Assembly (NCBI RefSeq): GCF_013315695.1
Contig: NZ_CP054353.1
DNA length: 64,000 nucleotides
Origin: Escherichia coli
GTDB taxonomy: Bacteria; Pseudomonadota; Gammaproteobacteria; Enterobacterales; Enterobacteriaceae
Strand: one strand, 5' to 3'
Shown: piece after piece, positions 6,163-49,197 of the stretch
Layout of the letters: each line of letters starts with the position of its first letter
Numbering within the stretch: the stretch's first letter is position 1
Position numbers and translations under genes: made by a program
Notes under the pieces: model-generated
What the model saw: the letters and a program-made list of their open reading frames with translations, nothing else
What the model was told of the DNA's origin: nothing
The model's database searches: none

Positions 6163-6246
6163 CTGATAACTCATGCAGGCATCTCAGACGACCCACTGAC
6201 ACTACCGGTGAGTTTAACGATACCTTCCATTTGGCTGGCTCACTTT

Positions 6247-8100
6247 TTATGATGATGCCGGTGCATTTATCTCCAGCACCAGACTTTCTATCTCAACGCC
6301 ATACGCTGCATTTTTGGTAATATCCGTCAGCGTCAGCGCATTCAGCCCCAGTGTCAGACTGTCTTTTATGACCTGGAATGCCGGGCCAGCCACTCCATTC
6401 AGTTTCGGAGTAACCGTGGCACTGCCGGCGGTGAACACCAGCTCCAGCGTCTGCCAGTCGTTACTGTAATTCCCGAACTCGCCCAACTTTGTGTTTCCTG
6501 CTTTCTTGTGATGCATCAGATTCAGTTTGCCGTCTGTGGTCTGGGTGAAGAACGACATCAGGAACGGGTTACCAGTCCCGGTCATCGCCACGACGTCAGG
6601 TAACGCTACATCGGTATACAGATAAATTCCCAGACCGAACTGGTTGTTGGTCAGTGCGCCTGACAGTCGAAACTTACAGCTCAGTCTGCCACCCCGTGTC
6701 AGCAGGGAGACTGCGTCATCCACCGGGCGCGTCAGGGACCAGGCTTTATTGCTCTGCTTGGTGATCTTAAATACACCATCTGACAACTGAATTCCGCCAT
6801 TCTTAATGCTCCAGCCCTGCGCAGCAGCGTCTCCGGCTGTCGGCAACAGGGAGATTGTGCGTATGGATGCATCTTCAGACGGCCCCGATGGCGTGTCGCC
6901 GCCGGGCGAGGGTTTGATTTCCGGTGCCTTACCACTAATGAAGGCTAAGGTGCGACCGGCTACGTTCAGAATAGCAGTTGCCATACGATCGGGAATAATG
7001 CCACGACGCGCCCATGAGCTGAAATGCGTCGGGCGATTTGATGATACCCAGTTTTTGTTCGTTCGGGATGCCGAACCGTAATAACCAGACCCGGCAATAT
7101 CAGGATCTTCTGACGGGTTGTTTGTCGGTGTATTAACTCCGCTACCATCGGTCATAAAGGGAACAAAATAAATCTGCTGGGATTCTTTACCTTTATATGC
7201 ACCATATACCACTTCATATTGCGTACCGTGTTCTTGTTTCCACGCGTATGTCGTGTCGCCACAAATCCAGGGGACTGATGCCGGACTTCCACCGTGACAC
7301 TGCGCCGCCAGCCCGGCAAGGTCAGCACGGAACTGCTGTACCATTGCAAGAAATGCTGCTGGCTGCTGGGCGTAACTGGCATTCGTCATATCGAATTCCC
7401 CCTGCATCCAGCATATCGCCAGCAAAACGTTTTTCGGGTTTTTCTGCAATGCTGCCTTCGTGCGGAAAAGCAGATCCTGATATAACGGCTTACCCACTCC
7501 CCAGCGAGCCGAATCCTGACTGGCTCCCGTGGACTCGCTGAATGTCCCCTCCGTGCCCTGGGTGAATGCCGAACCACCACGACAGCATGGTACCAGCAGG
7601 ATCCCCGCATTATTAGGGATATACGGAAGCAGTTTTTTGGCAATATGTAAGCCCTGTCCGACACAGCCGTACTGCCCTTTGCTCAGGTCAGCCCGGGGAT
7701 GGTTAATCGTACTCATATCCTGAACATCATGCAGACAATGGTCAGCAGGAATGATGTCGTTAAATACGCATACTTCACCACCGGGAGTCACTGTGTTACG
7801 ACGGGCCAGTTGCTTAATGCGCGGATGGGGCGCATCGTATGAATCCGGAAGCGGAAGCCCTTCACCGTAAGCCATGGCATTGGATTGCCCGGCCAGTACG
7901 ATGACGTAGTACCACTCCGGCTCAGTTGCACCACTGACGACCACATCACCTTCTGCTGCAATCGCCTGCATCAGGGTATAAGGGGTTATGGCCACCGGAC
8001 TACCAAACGGCTGCCAGCCCTCCTTCAGTTTTTGTGTCAGTCGTTTCGCAAGGTCTGACGGCGATGCCGCCCTGACCACGTCATAGTGTTTAAATGCCAT
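6247..8100 (-). CDS. prophage sialate O-acetylesterase-like SGNH hydrolase (NanS-p-like)
   Basis: 617-aa product; LAGQSNAMAYGEG block typical of SASA/SGNH esterases; GGGAGGA SD 5 nt upstream; position between tRNA genes and holin as in Stx-type lambdoid phages. Confidence 0.65.
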   Translation of the reverse strand: MAFKHYDVVRAASPSDLAKRLTQKLKEGWQPFGSPVAITPYTLMQAIAAEGDVVVSGATEPEWYYVIVLAGQSNAMAYGEGLPLPDSYDAPHPRIKQLARRNTVTPGGEVCVFNDIIPADHCLHDVQDMSTINHPRADLSKGQYGCVGQGLHIAKKLLPYIPNNAGILLVPCCRGGSAFTQGTEGTFSESTGASQDSARWGVGKPLYQDLLFRTKAALQKNPKNVLLAICWMQGEFDMTNASYAQQPAAFLAMVQQFRADLAGLAAQCHGGSPASVPWICGDTTYAWKQEHGTQYEVVYGAYKGKESQQIYFVPFMTDGSGVNTPTNNPSEDPDIAGSGYYGSASRTNKNWVSSNRPTHFSSWARRGIIPDRMATAILNVAGRTLAFISGKAPEIKPSPGGDTPSGPSEDASIRTISLLPTAGDAAAQGWSIKNGGIQLSDGVFKITKQSNKAWSLTRPVDDAVSLLTRGGRLSCKFRLSGALTNNQFGLGIYLYTDVALPDVVAMTGTGNPFLMSFFTQTTDGKLNLMHHKKAGNTKLGEFGNYSNDWQTLELVFTAGSATVTPKLNGVAGPAFQVIKDSLTLGLNALTLTDITKNAAYGVEIESLVLEINAPASS

Positions 8101-8812: not shown

Positions 8813-9038
8813 CACAGAAAAGCCCCTCCGGAGAGGGGCTGGAGAGTGGCGCTATGTGCCATTGCATGGTGCCGGGTGCCTCCCGGTGAATTCAGTACCA
8901 GCACCTGAATCCGCGATTATCCCATATACCTACTCGCTGATTGCCCCTCCGCACAGGGGGATTCACCATGCCAGTTTCTTTTAACAAACTCCCCGCAAAC
9001 CAGACAACAGTCAACCGCCTGAATTGTGAGACATTTAA
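8813..9038. repeat. direct repeat copy B
   Basis: Imperfect copy of repeat A about 480 bp away. Confidence 0.6.
8822..8839 (-). terminator. hairpin GCCCCTC-CGGA-GAGGGGC with downstream U-rich tract on the minus strand (repeat B)
   Basis: Same hairpin as copy A; in minus orientation followed by TTTTCT. Confidence 0.45.
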
Positions 9039-9074
9039 AAAAAGCCCGCAAAAGCGAGCCAGGGAAAATAAGTG

Positions 9075-9151
9075 TGGCGCGTTGTACTGGATTCGAACCA
9101 GTGACCGATTGCTTAGAAGGCAATTGCTCTGTCCGGCTGAGCTAACAACGC
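9075..9151 (-). tRNA. tRNA-Arg (anticodon UCU)
   Basis: Manual fold of the reverse complement: acceptor GCGTTGT/ACAACGC, D-arm GCTC/GAGC, anticodon stem ATTGC/GCAAT with loop CTTCTAA, T-arm ACTGG-TTCGAAT-CCAGT, discriminator G, CCA encoded. Confidence 0.8.
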
Positions 9152-9164
9152 AGGATACAGATAA

Positions 9165-9241
9165 TGGACCGCCTTCGGGGACCCGAACTCCGCGCAACCA
9201 GCTTCGAAAGCTGGCGCTCTTTCCTGATGAGCTAATGGCGG
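9165..9241 (-). tRNA. tRNA-like gene, Arg-type (anticodon UCG by manual fold), possibly degenerate
   Basis: D-arm TAGCTCATCAGGAAAGAGC, anticodon stem CCAGC/GCTGG with loop TTTCGAA, CCA encoded; one mismatch in the acceptor stem and one in the T stem; T-loop TTCGGGT is non-consensus. Confidence 0.5.
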
Positions 9242-9248
9242 TATGTGA

Positions 9249-9324
9249 TGGTGGCCCTTGCTGGATTTGAACCAGCGACCTGGCGATTATGAGTCGCTCG
9301 CTCTCACCACTGAGCTAAAGGGCC
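9249..9324 (-). tRNA. tRNA with CAU anticodon, ileX-like (tRNA-Ile2/lysidine type; could be Met)
   Basis: Acceptor GGCCCTT/AAGGGCC perfect, anticodon loop CTCATAA, T-arm GCTGG-TTCAAAT-CCAGC, discriminator A, CCA encoded; closely resembles E. coli ileX from memory. Confidence 0.8.
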
Positions 9325-9373: not shown

Positions 9374-10423
9374 TCAAACGATTAAATCCTGAACTTCCCT
9401 GACTGTCTGCTCAAAACGTCCGGTCTCCAGTTCAACGCCAATCGCACGACGCCCAAGCGCCAGTGCCGCTTTTACCGTTGAACCTGAGCCCATAAAAAAA
9501 TCTGCAACCAGGTCACCCGGACGACTGCTTGCGCTGATTATCTGCTGCAGCATTTCTGCCGGTTTTTCGCACGGATGTTTCCCGGGATAGAACTGCACCG
9601 GTTTATGTGTCCACACATCCGTGTACGGCACCTGCGCCGTCACACCAAAATACCGCCGCAGATGCTTATATTCACTCTGCAGCTCCACATACTGCCGGTT
9701 CAGTGACGTATACGTATCCACCAGCTGGTGGTGGGGCTTTTCCAGTTCACCGCGCTGATGTTTCTCTTCTGCCACCCGGGCAAACAGCGACTGTAATTTC
9801 AGATAATCGCTTTCGTTCGGTAGCTGCCACTGACTGGCACTGAACCAGTGCGACACCATGTTTTTCTTTCCTGTGGCATCTGCAATCTGTTTTGCCGTTA
9901 TCCCCAGGGCAGCGCGCGCATCACGAAAGTAAGAAATCAGCGGGGCCATCACATGCTGTTTCAGTGCACTGCCCTTCGCCGCATACCCGGCATCTTTCGG
10001 ACGATACGGCCCCTGATAATGTTCCGCGAACAGAATGCGCTCTGTGGCGGGGAAATACGCCCGCAGGCTTTCCTTGTTGCATCCGTTCCAGCGTCCGGAC
10101 GGCTTCGCCCAGATAATATGGTTCAGCACACTGAAGCGTTCACGCATCATGATTTCGATATCAGATGCCAGGCGATGACCACAGAACAGGTAAAGACTTC
10201 CGACAGGTTTCAGCACCCGCCAGAACTGCGCCAGACACTGGTCCAGCCACTTCAGGTAATCATCGTCGCCCTTCCACTGGTTATCCCAGCCCTCAGGCTT
10301 CACTTTAAAGTACGGCGGGTCCGTGACTATCAGGTCAACAGAATTTTCGGGTAACGACCGGATAAATTCCAGGCAGTCGGCGTTGATTAACTCACAACTG
10401 GATATTTTTACAGTATTAAGCAT
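9374..10423 (-). CDS. orphan DNA methyltransferase (beta-class N6-adenine/N4-cytosine type)
   Basis: 349-aa product with catalytic DPPY motif near the N-terminus (LIVTDPPYF) and AdoMet motif FFMGSGST near the C-terminus; no adjacent restriction endonuclease gene. Confidence 0.8.
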   Translation of the reverse strand: MLNTVKISSCELINADCLEFIRSLPENSVDLIVTDPPYFKVKPEGWDNQWKGDDDYLKWLDQCLAQFWRVLKPVGSLYLFCGHRLASDIEIMMRERFSVLNHIIWAKPSGRWNGCNKESLRAYFPATERILFAEHYQGPYRPKDAGYAAKGSALKQHVMAPLISYFRDARAALGITAKQIADATGKKNMVSHWFSASQWQLPNESDYLKLQSLFARVAEEKHQRGELEKPHHQLVDTYTSLNRQYVELQSEYKHLRRYFGVTAQVPYTDVWTHKPVQFYPGKHPCEKPAEMLQQIISASSRPGDLVADFFMGSGSTVKAALALGRRAIGVELETGRFEQTVREVQDLIV

Positions 10424-10561
10424 GGATCATTAAGCCTGTCTCTGATAGGCTCATTCTGCTTTTGCGCAAAGCAGTGGGCCTGAGGTTTGCTTGTGAACCC
10501 AACGCATGAGCAGATGGCTGGTGGGTGCCCCTAACACCCACCAGCCGCCCATTTACCACAA

Positions 10562-10587
10562 ATAAAAAAGCCTTCAGGACTGAAGGC
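10562..10587 (-). terminator. intrinsic terminator after the 65-aa ORF
   Basis: Minus-strand hairpin GCCTTCAG-TC-CTGAAGGC followed by TTTTTTATTT; stem overlaps the last codons of the upstream ORF. Confidence 0.55.
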
Positions 10588-10771
10588 GTCTGTAACAACC
10601 GAACTGATAGTCTGCCAGACCCGCCATAACCAGCTGGGTCAGTATTAACTGGCAGCGTTCGCGTGAAAGGTAAGTATTCTGCGCTATCTCCCCGACTGTC
10701 GCCGGTTCGGTAACGCTTAATTCATTAAACACCACTCTGGCGGTTTCTGTCATATCCTGCTGTTTTAGCAT
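10574..10771 (-). CDS. small winged-helix-like protein (65 aa)
   Basis: ATG at 10771 preceded by AAGGAAAAAG; product MLKQQDMTETARVVFNELSVTEPATVGEIAQNTYLSRERCQLILTQLVMAGLADY...; ORF-track ORF extends to 10858. Confidence 0.45.
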   Translation of the reverse strand: MLKQQDMTETARVVFNELSVTEPATVGEIAQNTYLSRERCQLILTQLVMAGLADYQFGCYRRLQS

Positions 10772-16000: not shown

Positions 16001-16747
16001 TTACTTCACAACCCTCATATTGCTGACATTTGGACGCCAGCTATCCCAGTTAAACGTCACCCATCGACCACCGTTCATGGTCATGCGGTCCATAATCCTC
16101 TCACCAAGAAGCGTACTCATTGCGGCATGATTCAGGTTTGTTAACATCCCGACACTGCACAGTGATGCTGTCCGGCGATCAATTATCTGGTGCAATACCA
16201 CCTGCTCGTTTTTCGTCTCCCGCTGAACGCCTATTTCATCCAGGACCAGCAAATCAACCCCGCAAAGCTCCTGTAAAAATTTTTCCCCGGATTTGCCGTT
16301 GTCGTAGCTGTCATGCAACACGCTCATGACGTCAGACACGGTGACGATAATCACGCTGCGCCCCTTCACCATCAGCCGGTTGCCCATCGCCGCTGCAAGG
16401 TGATTTTTCCCGGTGCCGGTTTTACCGCTGAACACAAAATTCGTGCACCCGGTCATCAGTTCGTCAGCTATGGATTTGGCCTGGCTCAGCGCGTATTTTT
16501 GCCCGTCGTTCTGCACCTGATAATTTGCAAACGAGCATTTGCTGTGCAGAGGCTGGATGCCCGAACGATTCAGGATTTTTTCCACCCGCAACTGGCGATT
16601 CTGGCGGTTAATCTCCTCGCTGCGTTTTCGTCCTTCAGCAAGTTGCCATTCCCGCCACTCCTCCACCGTCCGGTACGGTGGAACCGACCCCTGTGGTGCA
16701 AGTCTGCGAATACGTTCAAGACCCCCAACTGCCGCAATGTTTTTCAT
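16001..16747 (-). CDS. phage replication protein, DnaC-like helicase loader (YdaV-like)
   Basis: 248-aa product with Walker A GKTGTGKNHLAAAMG and Walker B LLVLDEIG. Confidence 0.85.
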   Translation of the reverse strand: MKNIAAVGGLERIRRLAPQGSVPPYRTVEEWREWQLAEGRKRSEEINRQNRQLRVEKILNRSGIQPLHSKCSFANYQVQNDGQKYALSQAKSIADELMTGCTNFVFSGKTGTGKNHLAAAMGNRLMVKGRSVIIVTVSDVMSVLHDSYDNGKSGEKFLQELCGVDLLVLDEIGVQRETKNEQVVLHQIIDRRTASLCSVGMLTNLNHAAMSTLLGERIMDRMTMNGGRWVTFNWDSWRPNVSNMRVVK

Positions 16748-28772: not shown

Positions 28773-29069
28773 GTGTTGTATGTTATTTACGCTCAAGACA
28801 AAGCTGATAGCCTCGAAAAACGCCTTTCCGTTCGTCCGGCACATTTAGCACGTTTACAGTTACTGCATGATGAAGGTCGTTTGTTGACCGCCGGTCCAAT
28901 GCCAGCAGTAGACAGTAACGATCCAGGGGCTGCGGGATTTACTGGCTCAACCGTTATTGCTGAATTTGAGTCGCTGGAAGCAGCTCAGGCCTGGGCCGAT
29001 GCTGACCCGTACGTAGCGGCAGGAGTCTATGAACACGTTTCAGTGAAACCATTTAAGAAAGTGTTTTGA
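28773..29069 (+). CDS. yciI: YciI-like protein
   Basis: GTG start 5 nt after AAGGAG; product [38 protein letters not shown]... Confidence 0.85.
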
Positions 29070-29221
29070 ATAAATTAAATATTATTTAAATTCAAAGCAA
29101 TAACGAAAGACAGTCAACATAATCAATAATAAAGGGCGCATTTAAGTACACATTAATCTAAGCGCCCCTTTTTTTTCGCTACGACTTATACTTTCAGTCT
29201 GACATCTGGCTGGAGGTTTCT

Positions 29222-29479
29222 ATGTGCGGACGCTTTTCACAGTCAATGACGCGTGAAGACTATCTCGCCCTTCTCGCAGATGAAGTCGAGCAAGACATTC
29301 CATATGACCCTGAACCGATCGGACGTTTCAACGTTGCGCCAGGCACCAAAGTTCTGCTTCTGAGCGAACGTGACGAGAAACTCCATCTTGATCCAGTTTT
29401 CTGGGGATACGCCCCGGATGGTGGGATAAACCTGGATTTTTACACATACCAAAGACAGATTAGATACTCTACTAATTAG
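29222..29479 (+). pseudogene. 5' fragment of an SRAP/YedK-family gene (about 70 codons), truncated
   Basis: MCGRFSQSMTREDYLALLADEVEQDIPYDPEPIGRFNVAPGTKVLLLSERDEKLHLDPVFWGYAP then unrelated AT-rich sequence and a stop; full-length family members are about 220 aa. Confidence 0.6.
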
Positions 29480-29587
29480 ATTTTAAACTCATGATTAGTA
29501 AGAGAGACTACCATGATTTATTTAACCAAAATGTCATTTTGTGATATTCTGCATAAAAGTTCATTATTCTAGAGATAGAGCATTAAT

Positions 29588-31381
29588 ATGAGTATCGGTT
29601 TGAGCAAAGTCGTTACAAGATATAAAAACTTAAAGTTGAAATCATATGTTTTCGACATTGTCAACGTTATGTTTTTATTGTACTTATTTTGTTTTCTAAA
29701 TCAGTCAATAGTTATCATAGGAAATATTGAACCGCCTAAAGAGTTAATTGGTGCAATATTGAATTTCATCTGGCGTTCATCCCCCATTTTGTTTATTTAT
29801 TTGTTATTTAGAATAATAAACATTCCAATTTTTCTATGTTCTTATTTATCAGGCATCGCAATTATAACATTGATGTTTGTGAACAGTACTAAAATGGCGT
29901 TAACCGGTGAGCCTTTATCATTTAATGACATTGTTTCTGGATTCAATTTGAGTGTCGCAGGAAAATACCTCAACTTATCATCCATTACTTACTCTGTCGC
30001 TATTCTAATTGGCGCAATAATCTCAATCCTACTTAGCAAAAAAACGGTCACAACAAGAAAAAATTATATATCGTTATTTCTTTTAATTATCATTACGATC
30101 CCCTTTTCATTCTACCCCTATATTGGAACCATTTTTAGCCCTAACAATAGGATTTCTGAAATCATAAACTCCAGCGCGAACAACTTAAATATAAAATATA
30201 TTTACTGGAATTGGTCTCAAAATATTGGCGTTAATGGCTTGCCAATGCATATAATACAAACAAGTGTCAGAAAATCTGTACCACATGCAACTGATGCAGA
30301 ACAATTAAGATATTTAGATGAAAAAAGATCTTTAGTATCCACTCATATAAAAAATAAAACCATTATTTATGTTTTATGTGAATCATGTTGGTATGATAAA
30401 AAAAACTTCCGAGAAAATTTCAAACCTGTTATTGATGAAGGTTACAGTGAATTACGGGCCATCTCACCAGTTTACGGTGGAGGTACCGCAAATGCCGAAT
30501 TTGAAATGCTGACAGGACTACCAAGTAATTCAGATAAAATATCAGGAATCATCTATCAAGAATATTCAGATGCATTCAAACCAAAAGTTGACGCATTACC
30601 TAATGCCCTGAAAAACAAAGGCTATATTACTTTCGCAGCACATAATTACCAAGCAGACTTTTGGTATAGGAATAAAATTTACCCTAAATTTGGATTTGAT
30701 AGATTTGATAGCATTATTAATATGGGAGATTTACCACCAGAGTATAGCAGTATTAAAAAACCATGGCAGTGGCAACCTGATGACTACCTGCTTTACAATG
30801 CAGCATTAAAAGCCATCCAAAATGCAGGAAACAAAGATATTTTTGTACATTTGATCACTATGTCAACTCATGGTCCTTATCAACACATTAATGATTATGG
30901 TGAAGGTGTTTATACCTATGAGATTAATGAGGCAGTCAAAAGATTCGTTCAATTTTCACAGCAAGTAGAAAAAATAGATCCAAATGCTGTAATCGTCTTT
31001 TACGGTGACCATAAACCACCACTAAATAAATATTTCGTCGAAAATGGGGTGCTACCAAGTAATATTTTCAACAAAATCGGAGAAGAAAAAGATGAAGATT
31101 TCGTCTTTAAAATGAGCACAACCCCACTCGATTTTGGTGATGTTCCTGTGCTTATTAAATCAAATGATAAAGACGCCATTAAAAAATTCATAACCGACGC
31201 CAATGGAAAACCTTTTTTCTGTGTATCTTCATTAGTTGATAAACATTTCATTCAATCTGGATTGGTATCATTTAATCACAACGCAAAGCATGTCTGTGAA
31301 AACAGTGATAACTTTAATTATGATAAGTTAATTAACATGACCCCGTCGTGGATTTATTCAATGTCATTATTTCACGATTAG
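29588..31381 (+). CDS. sulfatase-superfamily membrane protein (LTA-synthase / phosphoethanolamine-transferase-like), AT-rich
   Basis: 597-aa product; N-terminal multi-TM region, C-terminal domain with YVLCESCW and STHGPYQH motifs; codon usage strongly AT-biased. Confidence 0.6.
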   Translation: MSIGLSKVVTRYKNLKLKSYVFDIVNVMFLLYLFCFLNQSIVIIGNIEPPKELIGAILNFIWRSSPILFIYLLFRIINIPIFLCSYLSGIAIITLMFVNSTKMALTGEPLSFNDIVSGFNLSVAGKYLNLSSITYSVAILIGAIISILLSKKTVTTRKNYISLFLLIIITIPFSFYPYIGTIFSPNNRISEIINSSANNLNIKYIYWNWSQNIGVNGLPMHIIQTSVRKSVPHATDAEQLRYLDEKRSLVSTHIKNKTIIYVLCESCWYDKKNFRENFKPVIDEGYSELRAISPVYGGGTANAEFEMLTGLPSNSDKISGIIYQEYSDAFKPKVDALPNALKNKGYITFAAHNYQADFWYRNKIYPKFGFDRFDSIINMGDLPPEYSSIKKPWQWQPDDYLLYNAALKAIQNAGNKDIFVHLITMSTHGPYQHINDYGEGVYTYEINEAVKRFVQFSQQVEKIDPNAVIVFYGDHKPPLNKYFVENGVLPSNIFNKIGEEKDEDFVFKMSTTPLDFGDVPVLIKSNDKDAIKKFITDANGKPFFCVSSLVDKHFIQSGLVSFNHNAKHVCENSDNFNYDKLINMTPSWIYSMSLFHD

Positions 31382-31731
31382 TATCTAGAAAATAATTGTA
31401 ATAAATCATCATTAATTATGTAGACGCCTAAAATTAGGCATCTACATTTTATTAGAAAAGAGGTTGTCCTGACTAGGTTGTGGAAATGTGCATCGCATAA
31501 ATCAAGGCTATAGAGCATGAAAGTGCGTTCTTCCCCCTCTACCATTGATAAATATTTAAAAGTGCTCACGCTGGATTCGATCCAGGCATTAGCATCTTTG
31601 AGTGAGAATTCCCAGTTAACTTTGCTCAACCCCTGAACAAATCGCTGTGTAGTGACGGTCTTCCGGCCATTCGGCTCTTGCTGTATCGAAGAATACCAGG
31701 CTATTTCAATATCGCTGCGTCGTGGCATCAT
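31378..31731 (-). CDS. hypothetical protein (117 aa), possibly a gene fragment
   Basis: ATG pair with GAGGG upstream; divergent from the dinI-like gene; ORF-track ORF extends to 31977. Confidence 0.35.
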   Translation of the reverse strand: MMPRRSDIEIAWYSSIQQEPNGRKTVTTQRFVQGLSKVNWEFSLKDANAWIESSVSTFKYLSMVEGEERTFMLYSLDLCDAHFHNLVRTTSFLIKCRCLILGVYIINDDLLQLFSRY

Positions 31732-31771
31732 TACGCCCTCTCTTGAATACCGGATAAAAACACAGTATAAA

Positions 31772-31791
31772 TACTGTATATACACCCAGTA
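31772..31791. promoter_or_regulatory. LexA (SOS) box upstream of the dinI-like gene
   Basis: TACTGTATATACACCCAGTA: CTGT-N8-CCAG, one mismatch from the CTGT-N8-ACAG core; overlapping palindrome ACAGTATAAATACTGT just upstream. Confidence 0.6.
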
Positions 31792-31806
31792 AAGAGGCAA
31801 TGAGCA

Positions 31807-32034
31807 ATGTTCGTGGAACTCGTTTATGGCAAAAGGAATTTTGATGGACTGCCCGGTGCAAAAGATATCATTCTGGGCGAGTTGACCAAGAGGGTTCACC
31901 GGATTTTCCCCGGCGCTGATGTCCGGGTTAAACCGATGATGACATTGCCGGCGATCAACACTGACGCCAACAAGCATGAGAATGAACAGATAAGCCGTAC
32001 TGTTCAGGAAATGTTTGAAGAGACTGATATGTAG
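31807..32034 (+). CDS. DinI-like protein
   Basis: 75-aa product MFVELVYGKRNFDGLPGAKDIILGELTKRVHRIFPGADVRVKPMMTLPAINTDANKHENEQISRTVQEMFEETDM; AGAGG RBS; LexA box upstream. Confidence 0.7.
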   Translation: MFVELVYGKRNFDGLPGAKDIILGELTKRVHRIFPGADVRVKPMMTLPAINTDANKHENEQISRTVQEMFEETDM

Positions 32035-32122
32035 CTGTTTTCAGATTAAACGCCTTGAACCGTCACACTGATTAAGTACAATCCGGCGTGGTTGCGGCTT
32101 CCAGATTATAAGAATGATTCCC

Positions 32123-32550
32123 TTACTCACTTTTCAGCGCATTCACTTCTTCTCGTAATTCACTGAGTTCGTTCATTAGTACCAGAATCGCTTCATGATG
32201 CAACGCTGCCGCAACGCCGTAAGTATCTGGAGAGAGTACTCCTTCCACCATAGTTCCATCAGGAAGTTGACGATCACCTCCCTCAGTTACTGCCTGGGGG
32301 AAGATTTTCTTAACATCCTGCGCGATAAACCCAATCCCCCATTGTCCGGTATCTTTTCGCGTCCAGGAACAACCTTTTAGCATTTCCATCTTACTGAGCG
32401 GGTCTCCAATTCTGGACACTCCATCTTTCAGGCGGCCATCTGAATTCGGAACCCATGCTCCAGGCGCTACAGCGTTACCAGTTGATTTCATAAAGCTCCA
32501 TGTGGTTCCTGAGCTTGCGTTTGCTACCTGAATATTCCCTGATAAAGAAC
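32123..32550 (-). pseudogene. C-terminal fragment of a phage tail-fibre protein (intramolecular chaperone-type domain), 5' end removed by IS insertion
   Basis: ...GQWGIGFIAQDVKKIFPQAVTEGGDRQLPDGTMVEGVLSPDTYGVAAALHHEAILVLMNELSELREEVNALKSE; the frame runs upstream into the IS inverted repeat. Confidence 0.6.
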
Positions 32551-33473
<923 letters not shown>

Positions 33474-33602
33474 GTATCGGTAGAAAAAAGAAACTTTACC
33501 AGCCTGACTGATCCTTGCGTTCAGCCCATGAGAATCTGAAATGGTTTCGATATCATCTCGTTTCTTGCCCAGGGACTTCCTGAGCTTTGTGTCGGTAATC
33601 AT
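33474..33602 (-). pseudogene. N-terminal fragment (43 codons) of a P4-type integrase, cut by the IS element
   Basis: [43 protein letters not shown] resembles the DUF4102-type N-terminus of P4-family integrases; frame runs into the IS right end. Confidence 0.5.
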
Positions 33603-34105
33603 TGAATGTGTACACATCTGGCTTGCGAGTACGCAAAAGTGTACACAAAACTCGTTGCTCAAAGATACCCGCAATGTAACACTTGTACTCGAAGTGTGAT
33701 GGCTTAGGGGCTGAAAGGCAGATGGCGTAAGGGTTCAACGTAACAGAACGTTTTTATGCGAAATTCTTCGAAATGGTCTGAATGACATTTTAAGAAAGTG
33801 TTCTGAATAGAAATTCAATATTTAAGGGCACGGTTTTTGCAACCGTGTTCTTGTTTGGCCTTTCCTTATAGGTCGGTCAGTGCATTCACCACCACAAGCA
33901 GATAATAACTTTATCTGTATTTCTTTATATGATGTGAACATATTCAGGAAAATGCCCTTTCCTGACGCAGAGTTGCTCACTCAAAACCTTTGATTACTGC
34001 GGATAAAGTCATCTACTATTGTTTAACACATTCACGCGCTGCATGTATGTTCAGAAAATGTGCACGTTGAGATAATTAAACAAAATTGTGGTTACAGAGG
34101 TATCA

Positions 34106-47771: not shown

Positions 47772-49197
47772 TAATGCCAGTCAGTTAAGCAACTGACTGG
47801 CTCTTTTTCGGGGCTGTGGGGTATTTCCAGGGCCTCTCCTTTACCACTCTCGGGAAGGCCCTTTCCCTTCTTGTCGGTAATTTCACAAGTTGTCCCATAC
47901 TTGCAAGATCGCGCATCAGCTCCGGTATACGTCCCGGTGAAGCGCCCTGCAATGTCATCAGCATTCTCATCACCATTCCGCATGATTCTGAGAAACTCAG
48001 TTGATTCGGCCAGTAACCTTTCAGATGTTCCGCCATTTTAATCATCTGATATCTCACCAGATTATAAGCCAGTAAGACACCCCACAGCTCTTGCTCCACA
48101 AGCTCCGGTTTTTTACTTCTCAGCGTCAGCCTGCTCAGTTGCATCGTCTGTTTTATCTCCCTGTATCCCAGTTCGATTTCCCAGCGATGACTGTACAGAT
48201 CCGCCATTTCTCCTCCGGGGAAGCGCATGGCGTCCGTCATCGACGTCAGCAGATGGCAGACTTTTCCTTTGCGCGTCACGGTCAGCAGGCGGGCTGTCAC
48301 TTCATTTCCCAGTCCCGGCCACTTTTTTCGTGCCTGCGGGCTGGTTTTCAGCTTCACCAGATGATCGCCTTTACCCAGTTTTCTGATCTCTTCATATTGC
48401 GCTCCCTTTCTGAGAGGTATCATCCAGTGGCGGTGTTCTCCCGCCAGGCTCCAGGCATTTAACAGTCCCAGTGAGTAATAACCTTTATCCATTAACGTCA
48501 GAGTGTTATCGCCGGTTTGTTCTATAAGTTGCTCAGCAAGCTCATTTTCGCTGTTCTTCATCGTGCCGAAGGCTGCAGCCGTCAGCAGATGGCTGGTCAG
48601 TTCCATCTGGCAGACCATTTTGACCTGCGGGTAGAGCGCCGGGTTCCCGGCATGTGTCTGGCGGGGGAAGGCTGCATCGTTCTCTGGTGTATCCGGTGTG
48701 CGCCAGAACACACCATCGATGGCCAGCAGGGTCAGGCCGCACCAGTGCGGATGCGGCGTGGCGTTATGCCAGAGCTGCGCTGTTTTCGTGAACACGCGGC
48801 GGACAGCCTCACTTCCCAGGCGCTGGCGGGCCTGAATAACGGCACTGGGGGCAACGAAGGGGCGATTGCCCGGCAGCATGATGTCCAGGCGATTCACAAT
48901 CTGGTGAAGAGGTTCTTTACGCTCAAGCGCCATGCCAACAATACACCAGACCATCATTTCGAGGGGAAGACGGCGCTTGCGTAGCGTTACAGTACCTGAT
49001 TCGGCAAGGCAACGAGAGATGAGTTCGGGGTCGAGGTAATCCCCCAGAGAAGTCAGTGGGTTACGCAGAGAATCGTAACGGGATACCAGATCAAGAGCCT
49101 GTCCAATGTGCATAAAAAAATCCGGAAACAAGTGAGCGTTTCCGGATTCTTACACAGCCACTGGATCGGTCAACTGATCCTTAACTGATCGGCATTA
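47772..49197 (-). mobile_element. IS4 insertion sequence (1426 bp) with 12-bp target-site duplication
   Basis: Terminal inverted repeats TAATGCCAGTCAGTTAAG... (47772-) and ...CTTAACTGATCGGCATTA (-49197); TCCCTTCTGGGG present on both flanks (47760-47771 and 49198-49209). Confidence 0.9.
47785..49113 (-). CDS. insG: IS4 transposase
   Basis: 442-aa product [40 protein letters not shown]...; ORF-track ORF adds 6 upstream codons. Confidence 0.9.

Follow-up and report, generated by a model that had tools for sequence, protein, structure and literature searches.

An AT-rich gene on a prophage remnant of a narrow Escherichia coli lineage encodes a predicted LtaS/GacH-type phosphoglycerol transferase of the inner membrane

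Examination of a 64,000-nt stretch of Escherichia coli DNA (assembly GCF_013315695.1, contig NZ_CP054353.1), called here the window, revealed a prophage remnant between yciI and kch with one large intact gene, coding for a 597-amino acid (aa) predicted inner-membrane protein that resembles Gram-positive phosphoglycerol transferases. In the program-made list of open reading frames (ORFs), this gene starts with an ATG and occupies positions 29588..31381 of the plus strand, stop codon included, exactly as given in an original prediction made from the sequence. That prediction had also pointed to an AT-rich composition contrasting with the core neighbours, and the G+C content (GC) of the ORF is indeed 32.6% (36.6, 31.4 and 29.6% at the three codon positions), against a range of 0.47-0.54 in the neighbouring core genes (yciB 0.467, yciA 0.491, tonB 0.544, yciI 0.492) and 48.8% in the whole 64-kb window. 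The lowest 1-kb GC bins of the window are those covering 29001-31000, at 0.360 and 0.329. Since random codons of this base composition are stops with p=0.075, an open frame of 597 codons would arise by chance with a probability of about 6e-21. Two motifs named in the same prediction, ESxW and HGPY, were located at residues 265-268 (as ESCW) and 428-431.

The ORF is intact in 30 of the 30 E. coli genomes that carry it, at an identity of at least 99.9%, and each copy is annotated as an intact coding sequence (CDS); pseudogene status is thereby ruled out. A 3-kb query is 100% identical in the blood isolate AF3 and differs from strain SMS-3-5 by a single synonymous change (V521, GTG/GTA). The annotated start differs from that of the ORF: RefSeq begins the protein at M96 in AF3 (502 aa) or at M103 in SMS-3-5 (495 aa), and UniProt holds the 502-aa form. 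These starts lie about 100 codons late (codons 1-102 correspond to 29588-29893) and cut off the first three of five predicted membrane helices together with several conserved residues. The 597-codon reading is the better supported start by sequence comparison, because homologues of 589-609 aa can be aligned from residue 1 and because conserved positions lie upstream of the RefSeq starts, namely a motif SSPxxFxYLLxR, with P66 and R75 at least 90% conserved, and K102, invariant among 27 homologues. Cloning of the RefSeq-annotated CDS would give a mis-inserted and probably inactive protein, and the corrected start is a practical by-product of this analysis.

Most E. coli have yciI and kch side by side; in both annotated genomes, AF3 and SMS-3-5, the gene is found between the two. 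The island that separates them is 4.7 kb long and is enclosed by two copies of a 21-nt direct repeat, 4,737 nt apart and identical at 20 of 21 positions. The left copy (TTTAAGAAAGTGTTTTGAATA, 29052..29072) overlaps the last codons and the stop codon of yciI, and the right copy (TTTAAGAAAGTGTTCTGAATA, 33789..33809) marks the other island edge just before kch; these repeats are presumed attachment (att) sites, as left by a phage that integrates site-specifically at the 3' end of yciI. According to RefSeq annotation and PHROG matches, all companions of the gene in the island are phage debris. The left repeat is followed by a 5' fragment of a gene for a YedK-like SOS-response-associated peptidase (SRAP; 29222..29432, plus strand), a frameshifted and incomplete pseudogene in RefSeq, which matches phrog_1599 (E 2.4e-17) over profile positions 1-64 of 225. 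Beyond the 597-aa gene come a fragment of a small phage gene (31507..31731, minus strand; phrog_3893, E 1e-26), an incomplete pseudogene in RefSeq whose 3' end is truncated by the AT-rich DNA, and a DinI-like gene annotated by RefSeq (31807..32034, plus strand; phrog_189 DinI, E 1.1e-15), similar at the DNA level to the DinI genes of phi80, HK140 and phiKO2. The C-terminal third of a tail-fibre gene follows (32123..32599, minus strand; phrog_1980, E 1.1e-33, profile 299-435 of 449; a tail fiber domain-containing protein in RefSeq), its N-terminal part having been lost at the junction with an IS3-family transposase ORF of shortened, fused form (32587..33465, plus strand, 292 aa; RefSeq; phrog_157 transposase, E 3e-97). 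The last element before the right repeat is a phage integrase remnant with the N-terminal Arm DNA-binding domain (33474..33602, minus strand), a RefSeq pseudogene whose L009 coordinates, 16375-16503, were shifted by 17,099 to give the window positions. An IS3 deletion event probably removed most of the prophage. At the same site SMS-3-5 carries a split IS3 into which a second, complete IS3 is inserted (L001 23488-25702). A megablast of the island against E. coli genomes returned mostly IS3 ends and was of little further use.

This order puts the gene past the tail fibre, at the accessory end of a temperate phage. It thus occupies the moron-type location between tail-fibre genes and attachment site, and no other large gene of the island is still intact. 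The claim that it is horizontally acquired island cargo therefore holds, given a prophage remnant bounded by 21-nt direct repeats with an AT-rich segment nested within it.

This AT-rich segment (29433..31611), delimited by a fine GC profile and by blastn against the prophage of strain fEC.1, starts where the SRAP fragment ends and extends to 31510-31611, with about 22-42% GC in 120-nt windows compared with about 49% in the flanking phage fragments. Its size is 2.1-2.2 kb, the right edge being nearer 31510 by the GC profile and at 31611 by blastn pairing. The 597-aa gene is its sole ORF, accompanied by about 155 nt upstream and 130-230 nt downstream. In the e14-like and more complete fEC.1 prophage (L014), the SRAP gene, an S24-peptidase gene, the small gene and DinI are contiguous and the 597-aa gene is missing. 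Window positions 29187-29432 pair with 9001-9247 of this prophage, the DNA homology to its intact SRAP gene stopping at 29432, and positions 31612-32090 pair with 10244-10721. In the window, about 2.2 kb of foreign DNA thus stands in place of about 1 kb of fEC.1-type prophage (the 3' part of SRAP and the S24-peptidase gene). A search around the cassette found no terminal inverted repeats, and no transposase accompanies it; a single internal 15-nt direct repeat returned by the search is probably due to chance. Entry by illegitimate recombination is the simplest guess.

The ORF was compared with Pfam, NCBIfam and PDB and modelled with AlphaFold2 (AF2). The sole Pfam match is PF00884 (Sulfatase) over residues 257-481 (30356..31030, plus strand; model positions 1-247 of 301, E 1.4e-25), so that the sulfatase-superfamily C-terminal domain of the original prediction, a catalytic domain of the alkaline-phosphatase superfamily, stands. 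Searching PDB with the single sequence in phmmer gave GacH of Streptococcus pyogenes as the best match (E 2.3e-10), then LtaP and LtaS, and a profile of 27 homologues gave GacH (5.9e-19), LtaP (3.6e-15) and three LtaS entries (3.5e-11 to 4.1e-9) as its only meaningful matches. The AF2 model built on the homologue alignment has a pLDDT of 88.5 and a pTM of 0.85; Foldseek against PDB placed LtaP, GacH and LtaS first (2e-13 to 1e-8), with LtaP at the top. In AFDB50, LTA-synthase-like and cyclic-glucan-modification (CgmB-like) proteins make up the structural neighbours from outside the clade, none of them characterised. By sequence, profile and predicted fold, the protein is thus grouped with the Gram-positive phosphoglycerol transferases GacH, LtaP and LtaS. 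LtaS proper was rejected as an identity: the NCBIfam LtaS equivalog NF053595 gives a partial match (residues 332-475) of 27.4 bits, far below its cut-off of 970.

Head-group specificity was assessed from the residues of the active site. An alignment of 27 sequences (32-100% identity) has 41 invariant columns, including E265, T300, H352, R361, H428, D474 and H475; W359 is mostly conserved. In HMMER alignments, E265, T300, H352, R361, H428, D474 and H475 correspond to GacH E488, T530, H580, R589, H650, D711 and H712, and E265, T300, H352, W359, R361, D474 and H475 to LtaS E255, T300, H347, W354, R356, D475 and H476, so that the H-x6-W-x-R spacing is the same as in LtaS H347/W354/R356. GacH N586 is not conserved, F358 being found at the equivalent position. 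On the plus strand, the codons of the aligned metal and nucleophile residues lie at 30380-30382 (E265), 30485-30487 (T300) and 31007-31012 (D474-H475), and those of the putative glycerol-phosphate contacts at 30641-30643 (H352), 30662-30664 (W359), 30668-30670 (R361) and 30869-30871 (H428). In GacH, E488, T530, D711 and H712 bind Mn2+ and the threonine is the nucleophile; H650 contacts the phosphate, and H580 and R589 hydrogen-bond the glycerol hydroxyls, like LtaS H347 and R356 (bioRxiv 10.1101/337519). The conservation of these glycerol contacts is the main argument for glycerol-phosphate, rather than ethanolamine-phosphate, as the head group.

An enzyme of the latter kind had been the other half of the original assignment to an LTA-synthase or phosphoethanolamine-transferase type. 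Such an enzyme would take phosphoethanolamine from phosphatidylethanolamine and place it on lipid A, lipopolysaccharide (LPS) core or O-antigen, in the manner of EptA/MCR-1, EptB/EptC or Opt. These transferases share the superfamily and the same E/T/D/H arrangement of metal ligands and nucleophile, and the fold search returned isolated MCR-1 and EptC catalytic domains at about 1e-7 and one full-length MCR-1 cryo-EM chain at 3e-11 (TM score 0.39-0.43, rmsd 14 A). Against them, none of the EptA, MCR, EptC, BcsG or PbgA chains was returned at E<=1 by the 27-homologue profile searched against all PDB chains, nor any phosphoethanolamine transferase chain at E<=0.01 by the single sequence, with dozens of such chains in PDB; Pfam finds no N-terminal domain of the EptA_B_N type, and the H352/R361 pair that contacts glycerol in GacH and LtaS is invariant. 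The LTA-synthase side of the assignment was accordingly retained and the phosphoethanolamine side was not. Membership in EptA/MCR/EptB/EptC was rejected on the missing profile match, the lone PF00884 and the weaker fold similarity.

The closest precedent for phosphoethanolamine is Opt (Lpt-O), encoded by plasmid pSFxv_2 of Shigella flexneri, which adds phosphoethanolamine to O-antigen rhamnose (PMC3458804). As a functional analogy only, Opt is a single mobile-element-borne membrane enzyme of the Sulfatase superfamily that converts a surface antigen without partner genes, a mobile single-gene phospho-modifier of O-antigen. Opt differs in being plasmid-borne, 506 aa long and specific for phosphoethanolamine, and it has no detectable sequence similarity to the prophage-borne protein (BLASTP E 0.78). 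Its own PDB matches are others (3lxq and sulfatases), and a relationship of the two proteins was rejected despite their identical RefSeq name. That name, 'LTA synthase family protein', is also given to Opt (L096 1523-3043, pSFxv_2) and hence spans different head groups among proteins lacking mutual similarity. Taken together, we consider a phosphoethanolamine transferase improbable.

A second question concerns the side of the membrane on which the enzyme would act. The N-terminal multi-transmembrane (TM) region claimed earlier is made up of five helices within residues 19-179, at about 19-38, 50-76, 81-106, 130-150 and 157-179, according to a hydropathy scan and DSSP on the AF2 model; this membrane domain covers residues 1-179 (29588..30124, plus strand). 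A periplasmic loop, K102-x3-TGEPLSFND114, is conserved, and K102, D114 and Y127 are invariant among the 27 homologues. The N-terminus carries five K/R and no acidic residue, the loop 151-160 has four K/R, and the loops 39-49 and 107-129 are neutral or acidic. Positive-inside charges and five helices together indicate a cytoplasmic N-terminus and a periplasmic catalytic domain, as in LtaS; the predicted topology is N-in, C-out.

Comparison with characterised systems places the protein between several of them. GacH of S. pyogenes and SccH of S. mutans (PDB 5U9Z, 6DGM) decorate rhamnose cell-wall polysaccharides. GacH keeps the same metal ligands and threonine nucleophile, and its H580/R589/H650 are retained here as H352/R361/H428; in both proteins a polytopic membrane anchor precedes an extracytoplasmic catalytic domain, and both are proposed to tailor glycans, not to polymerise them. 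GacH differs in having 11 TM helices against five predicted here, an identity of 17-19% and a Gram-positive host, and gacH lies in a biosynthetic operon, whereas the E. coli gene is an orphan on a prophage remnant. The GacH family as limited by its authors (11 TM helices, at least 33% identity) does not take in a protein with five predicted helices and 17-19% identity. LtaS and LtaP share five TM helices, an extracellular Sulfatase-fold domain, the aligned H-x6-W-x-R motif and an inferred phosphatidylglycerol donor; apart from the low equivalog score, the difference is that nothing here indicates processive polymerisation. To our knowledge, E. coli has neither lipoteichoic acid (LTA) nor the pathway for its glycolipid anchor.

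We therefore favour, with a probability of roughly 0.6, the reading that the gene product is an inner-membrane, periplasm-facing phosphoglycerol transferase of LtaS/GacH type, its acceptor being left open. The plainer statement that the protein is a periplasmic phosphoglycerol transferase appears distinctly probable. Donor lipid, head group, acceptor, expression and phenotype are inferred only. In the mechanism that we propose, the enzyme would be held in the inner membrane by five helices, the N-terminus facing the cytoplasm and the catalytic domain the periplasm, and phosphatidylglycerol of the outer leaflet of this membrane would be presented by the membrane domain. T300 would be activated by a metal ion, with E265, T300, D474 and H475 as its ligands, for attack on the phosphatidylglycerol phosphodiester, with release of diacylglycerol and its recycling by DgkA. 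The resulting covalent glycerol-phosphate-threonine intermediate, cradled by H352, W359, R361 and H428, would then pass sn-glycerol-1-phosphate to a hydroxyl group on a sugar of some periplasmic or surface glycan. Donor and acceptor would both be supplied by the host, hence no partner gene would be needed. The foreign AT-rich cassette would have arrived in the accessory end of a temperate phage that entered the 3' end of yciI and then decayed around it, and the expected phenotype would be a more anionic, antigenically altered surface, as for lysogenic-conversion-like cargo.

In that last respect the gene may be compared with the phage-encoded O-antigen modification genes gtrABC and oac, likewise accessory cargo placed by a temperate-phage attachment site, with a GC under that of the host and an expected action at the periplasmic face. 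Their chemistry and protein families are unrelated to those considered here, and no intact phage with the 597-aa gene exists among 50,697 phage records.

Possible acceptors include undecaprenyl-diphosphate-linked or ligated O-antigen, LPS core, enterobacterial common antigen and osmoregulated periplasmic glucans (OPG), a surface polysaccharide such as O-antigen or LPS being the likeliest candidate; we hold this choice tentatively, at somewhat less than even odds. PptB of Neisseria, a pilin phosphoglycerol transferase, is a candidate analogue in which the acceptor is a protein. Gene neighbourhoods of relatives bear on the point. A scan of one genome per GTDB species retrieved 21 loci with full-length relatives (28-53% identity) among about 100,000 species representatives, and in an all-against-all comparison of the neighbours at these 21 loci none was common across genera. 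The lack of a travelling partner gene fits an enzyme with host-supplied donor and acceptor. In two Bdellovibrio metagenome-assembled genomes (MAGs; L025 3555-9575 and L029), the homologue is the last gene of an operon rmlB-rmlA-rmlD-FAD oxidoreductase-GmhB-like phosphatase, flanked by glmS, an asnB-like amidotransferase, a GT2 glycosyltransferase, gmd and an epimerase of the short-chain dehydrogenase/reductase (SDR) type. There the dTDP-rhamnose genes clearly belong to a cluster for polysaccharide synthesis. The two genes directly upstream of the Bdellovibrio homologue code for a glycerol-3-phosphate-oxidase-like FAD enzyme and the GmhB-like phosphatase. In a Rhodocyclaceae MAG (L026 28-2588), rmlD overlaps the start of the homologue. 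Some distant relatives thus adjoin dTDP-rhamnose genes, as does gacH. In Pragia fontium (L005 10001-12839), the homologue is convergent with a gene for a 324-aa AT3 (Acyl_transf_3) membrane acyltransferase amid phage fragments, a pair that resembles a small surface-glycan modification islet; compared with phage Oac, this AT3 gave weak matches to Gram-positive and Acinetobacter phages only. These associations echo the place of gacH in the streptococcal rhamnose-polysaccharide cluster and point to a surface polysaccharide; they come from few and distant relatives. A gene cluster for pyridoxal phosphate-dependent enzymes at four loci was judged coincidental, as it consists of different methionine-pathway paralogues (metC or metY) at varying distance. 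Unrelated housekeeping genes surround the homologue in Vitreoscilla, Geobacter, Cupriavidus and Lysobacteraceae.

The OPG among these acceptors define a further alternative, namely a phosphoglycerol transferase redundant with OpgB or analogous to CgmB. OpgB (MdoB) and CgmB of Sinorhizobium are of the same superfamily and are the classical Gram-negative periplasmic enzymes taking glycerol-phosphate from phosphatidylglycerol, CgmB-like 'cyclic beta-1,2-glucan modification' proteins are among the structural neighbours, and most homologues are orphan genes outside any glycan cluster. OpgB differs from the prophage-borne protein in its length (763 aa) and membrane domain, and the host opgB is intact; the similarity of the two products is marginal (BLASTP E 0.26; hhalign probability of 91.6%, profile against sequence, across some 200 columns) and NCBIfam gives no OpgB match, which led to the rejection of an OpgB orthologue or paralogue. 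Moreover, the CgmB-like matches (E about 1e-22, 17-19% identity) are far weaker than those within the family, and the informative contexts are the polysaccharide/rhamnose clusters and the AT3 acyltransferase; opg genes occur neither there nor around the E. coli gene. An OPG-modifying enzyme is, in our view, quite unlikely.

Within the species, the gene was found in exactly 30 of 5,426 complete E. coli genomes, always single-copy and chromosomal, and down to blastn sensitivity these genomes contain no diverged copy. The carriers were isolated from blood cultures, poultry, dogs and river water. Relatives with 45-66% protein identity occur in Citrobacter, Pragia, Mangrovibacter, Kosakonia and Enterobacter, all listed homologues carrying PF00884, and the 21 species-level loci belong to Enterobacterales, Vitreoscilla, Rhodocyclaceae, Cupriavidus, Alcaligenes, Geobacter, Bdellovibrio, Lysobacteraceae and Rhizobiales; below these come LtaS-like proteins of Gram-positive bacteria, with identities near 25%. 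The homologue is nearly always a lone insert whose locus differs between genera: between cpxP and fieF in Kosakonia, between tyrA and pheA in a metagenomic enterobacterium, adjoining an Ogr/Delta remnant in Citrobacter and by an iron ABC transporter in Enterobacter. Its GC is usually 8-16 points under that of its flanks; in Bdellovibrio it equals that of the host. In Kosakonia radicincitans (L011 9313-11800), the homologue directly follows cpxP on the same strand and precedes fieF, and Cpx envelope-stress control of this enzyme family in Kosakonia is a possibility.

This narrow distribution bears on yet another explanation, that the gene is a silent, functionally irrelevant passenger, its intact ORF not yet decayed in a recent clonal lineage. 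The 30 copies, at least 99.9% identical, have had too little time for selection to become visible, every island neighbour is a fragment, and no promoter above chance accompanies a strongly AT-rich gene. On the other side, it is the one large island gene that has escaped disruption, its family is under purifying selection (41 invariant columns at 32-63% identity, including the catalytic residues and the membrane-domain motif), and relatives are stably retained at one locus in Enterobacter asburiae and Kosakonia genomes. We regard a passenger role as unlikely; such a role is a matter of expression in E. coli and would not conflict with the biochemical assignment.

Several observations weigh against the phosphoglycerol transferase reading and its extension to a phage-delivered surface modification. 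Structure-based alignment identity to GacH and LtaS is only 17-19%, donor, head group and acceptor rest on homology of this kind, and no member of the clade has been characterised. As Opt shares the RefSeq name, head-group assignment by name is unsafe. About 18 of the 21 species-level loci offer no neighbourhood clue of any sort, and the polysaccharide-cluster association comes from only two lineages, with 35-37% identity. The cassette displaced phage genes, so it may have entered after the death of the prophage, and the status of 'phage moron' rests on position only. In a tblastn search of the 50,697 phage and of 72,556 plasmid records, only remote LtaS-like matches of at most 32.5% identity were found, mostly from Gram-positive or rhizobial replicons; scans of the 597-aa protein against PHROGs and PADLOC gave no match, and a known phage family or defence protein was rejected on this ground. 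Promoter-like and terminator-like sites were, in our scan, no commoner than in shuffled sequence. In E. coli, H-NS often silences AT-rich DNA of this kind, and the gene may thus lack expression.

Outside the island, the left part of the window (1-24939) is occupied by a large lambdoid prophage beside ompW, which runs from portal and terminase to lysis genes and from the Q antiterminator to dicB, exonuclease, xis and int, and which is missing at the same place in SMS-3-5. Its accessory genes include those for a SASA-family carbohydrate esterase (6236-8089), three tRNAs (Arg, Arg and Ile, 9064-9313), a DNA methyltransferase, QueH and hokD. To the right, an IS4 element at 47785-49131, between adhE and tdk in the AF3 annotation and not there in SMS-3-5, explains a dip in GC at about 49-50 kb.

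The enzyme type, fold and chemistry discussed here are well known, and databases already give the protein a generic family name. A modest but real novelty lies in three points: a distinct and uncharacterised proteobacterial clade, to which GacH/LtaS are more similar than any Gram-negative enzyme is; the delivery of one member to a narrow E. coli lineage on a prophage remnant; and the correction of the start codon. In the library searched, no paper on the clade was found, and nothing specific turned up on the protein, on its accessions or on any LtaS/GacH-like enzyme of Gram-negative bacteria that transfers phosphoglycerol to glycans. As a more speculative extension, which we think possible but rather doubtful, the clade may form a hitherto unrecognised Gram-negative class of surface-glycan tailoring enzymes, phage-delivered in E. 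coli, that use phosphatidylglycerol to attach sn-glycerol-1-phosphate at the periplasmic face to O-antigen, LPS or some other polysaccharide of the surface.

The family is small and patchy, being present in about 21 of some 100,000 species representatives. In streptococci, the modification by GacH changes zinc tolerance and the susceptibility to the host bactericidal enzyme hGIIA, and the group A carbohydrate, which GacH of S. pyogenes decorates, is of interest as a vaccine antigen (bioRxiv 10.1101/337519). If active, the enzyme described here would give an envelope glycan in a clinically relevant E. coli lineage a glycerol-phosphate substituent with a negative charge, and in Gram-negative bacteria such a modification could affect O-serology, the adsorption of phages and the response to cationic peptides. 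Should this prove true, phosphoglycerol would join glucosylation, acetylation and phosphoethanolamine among the chemistries of serotype and receptor conversion carried by mobile elements, as a Gram-negative counterpart of streptococcal GacH.

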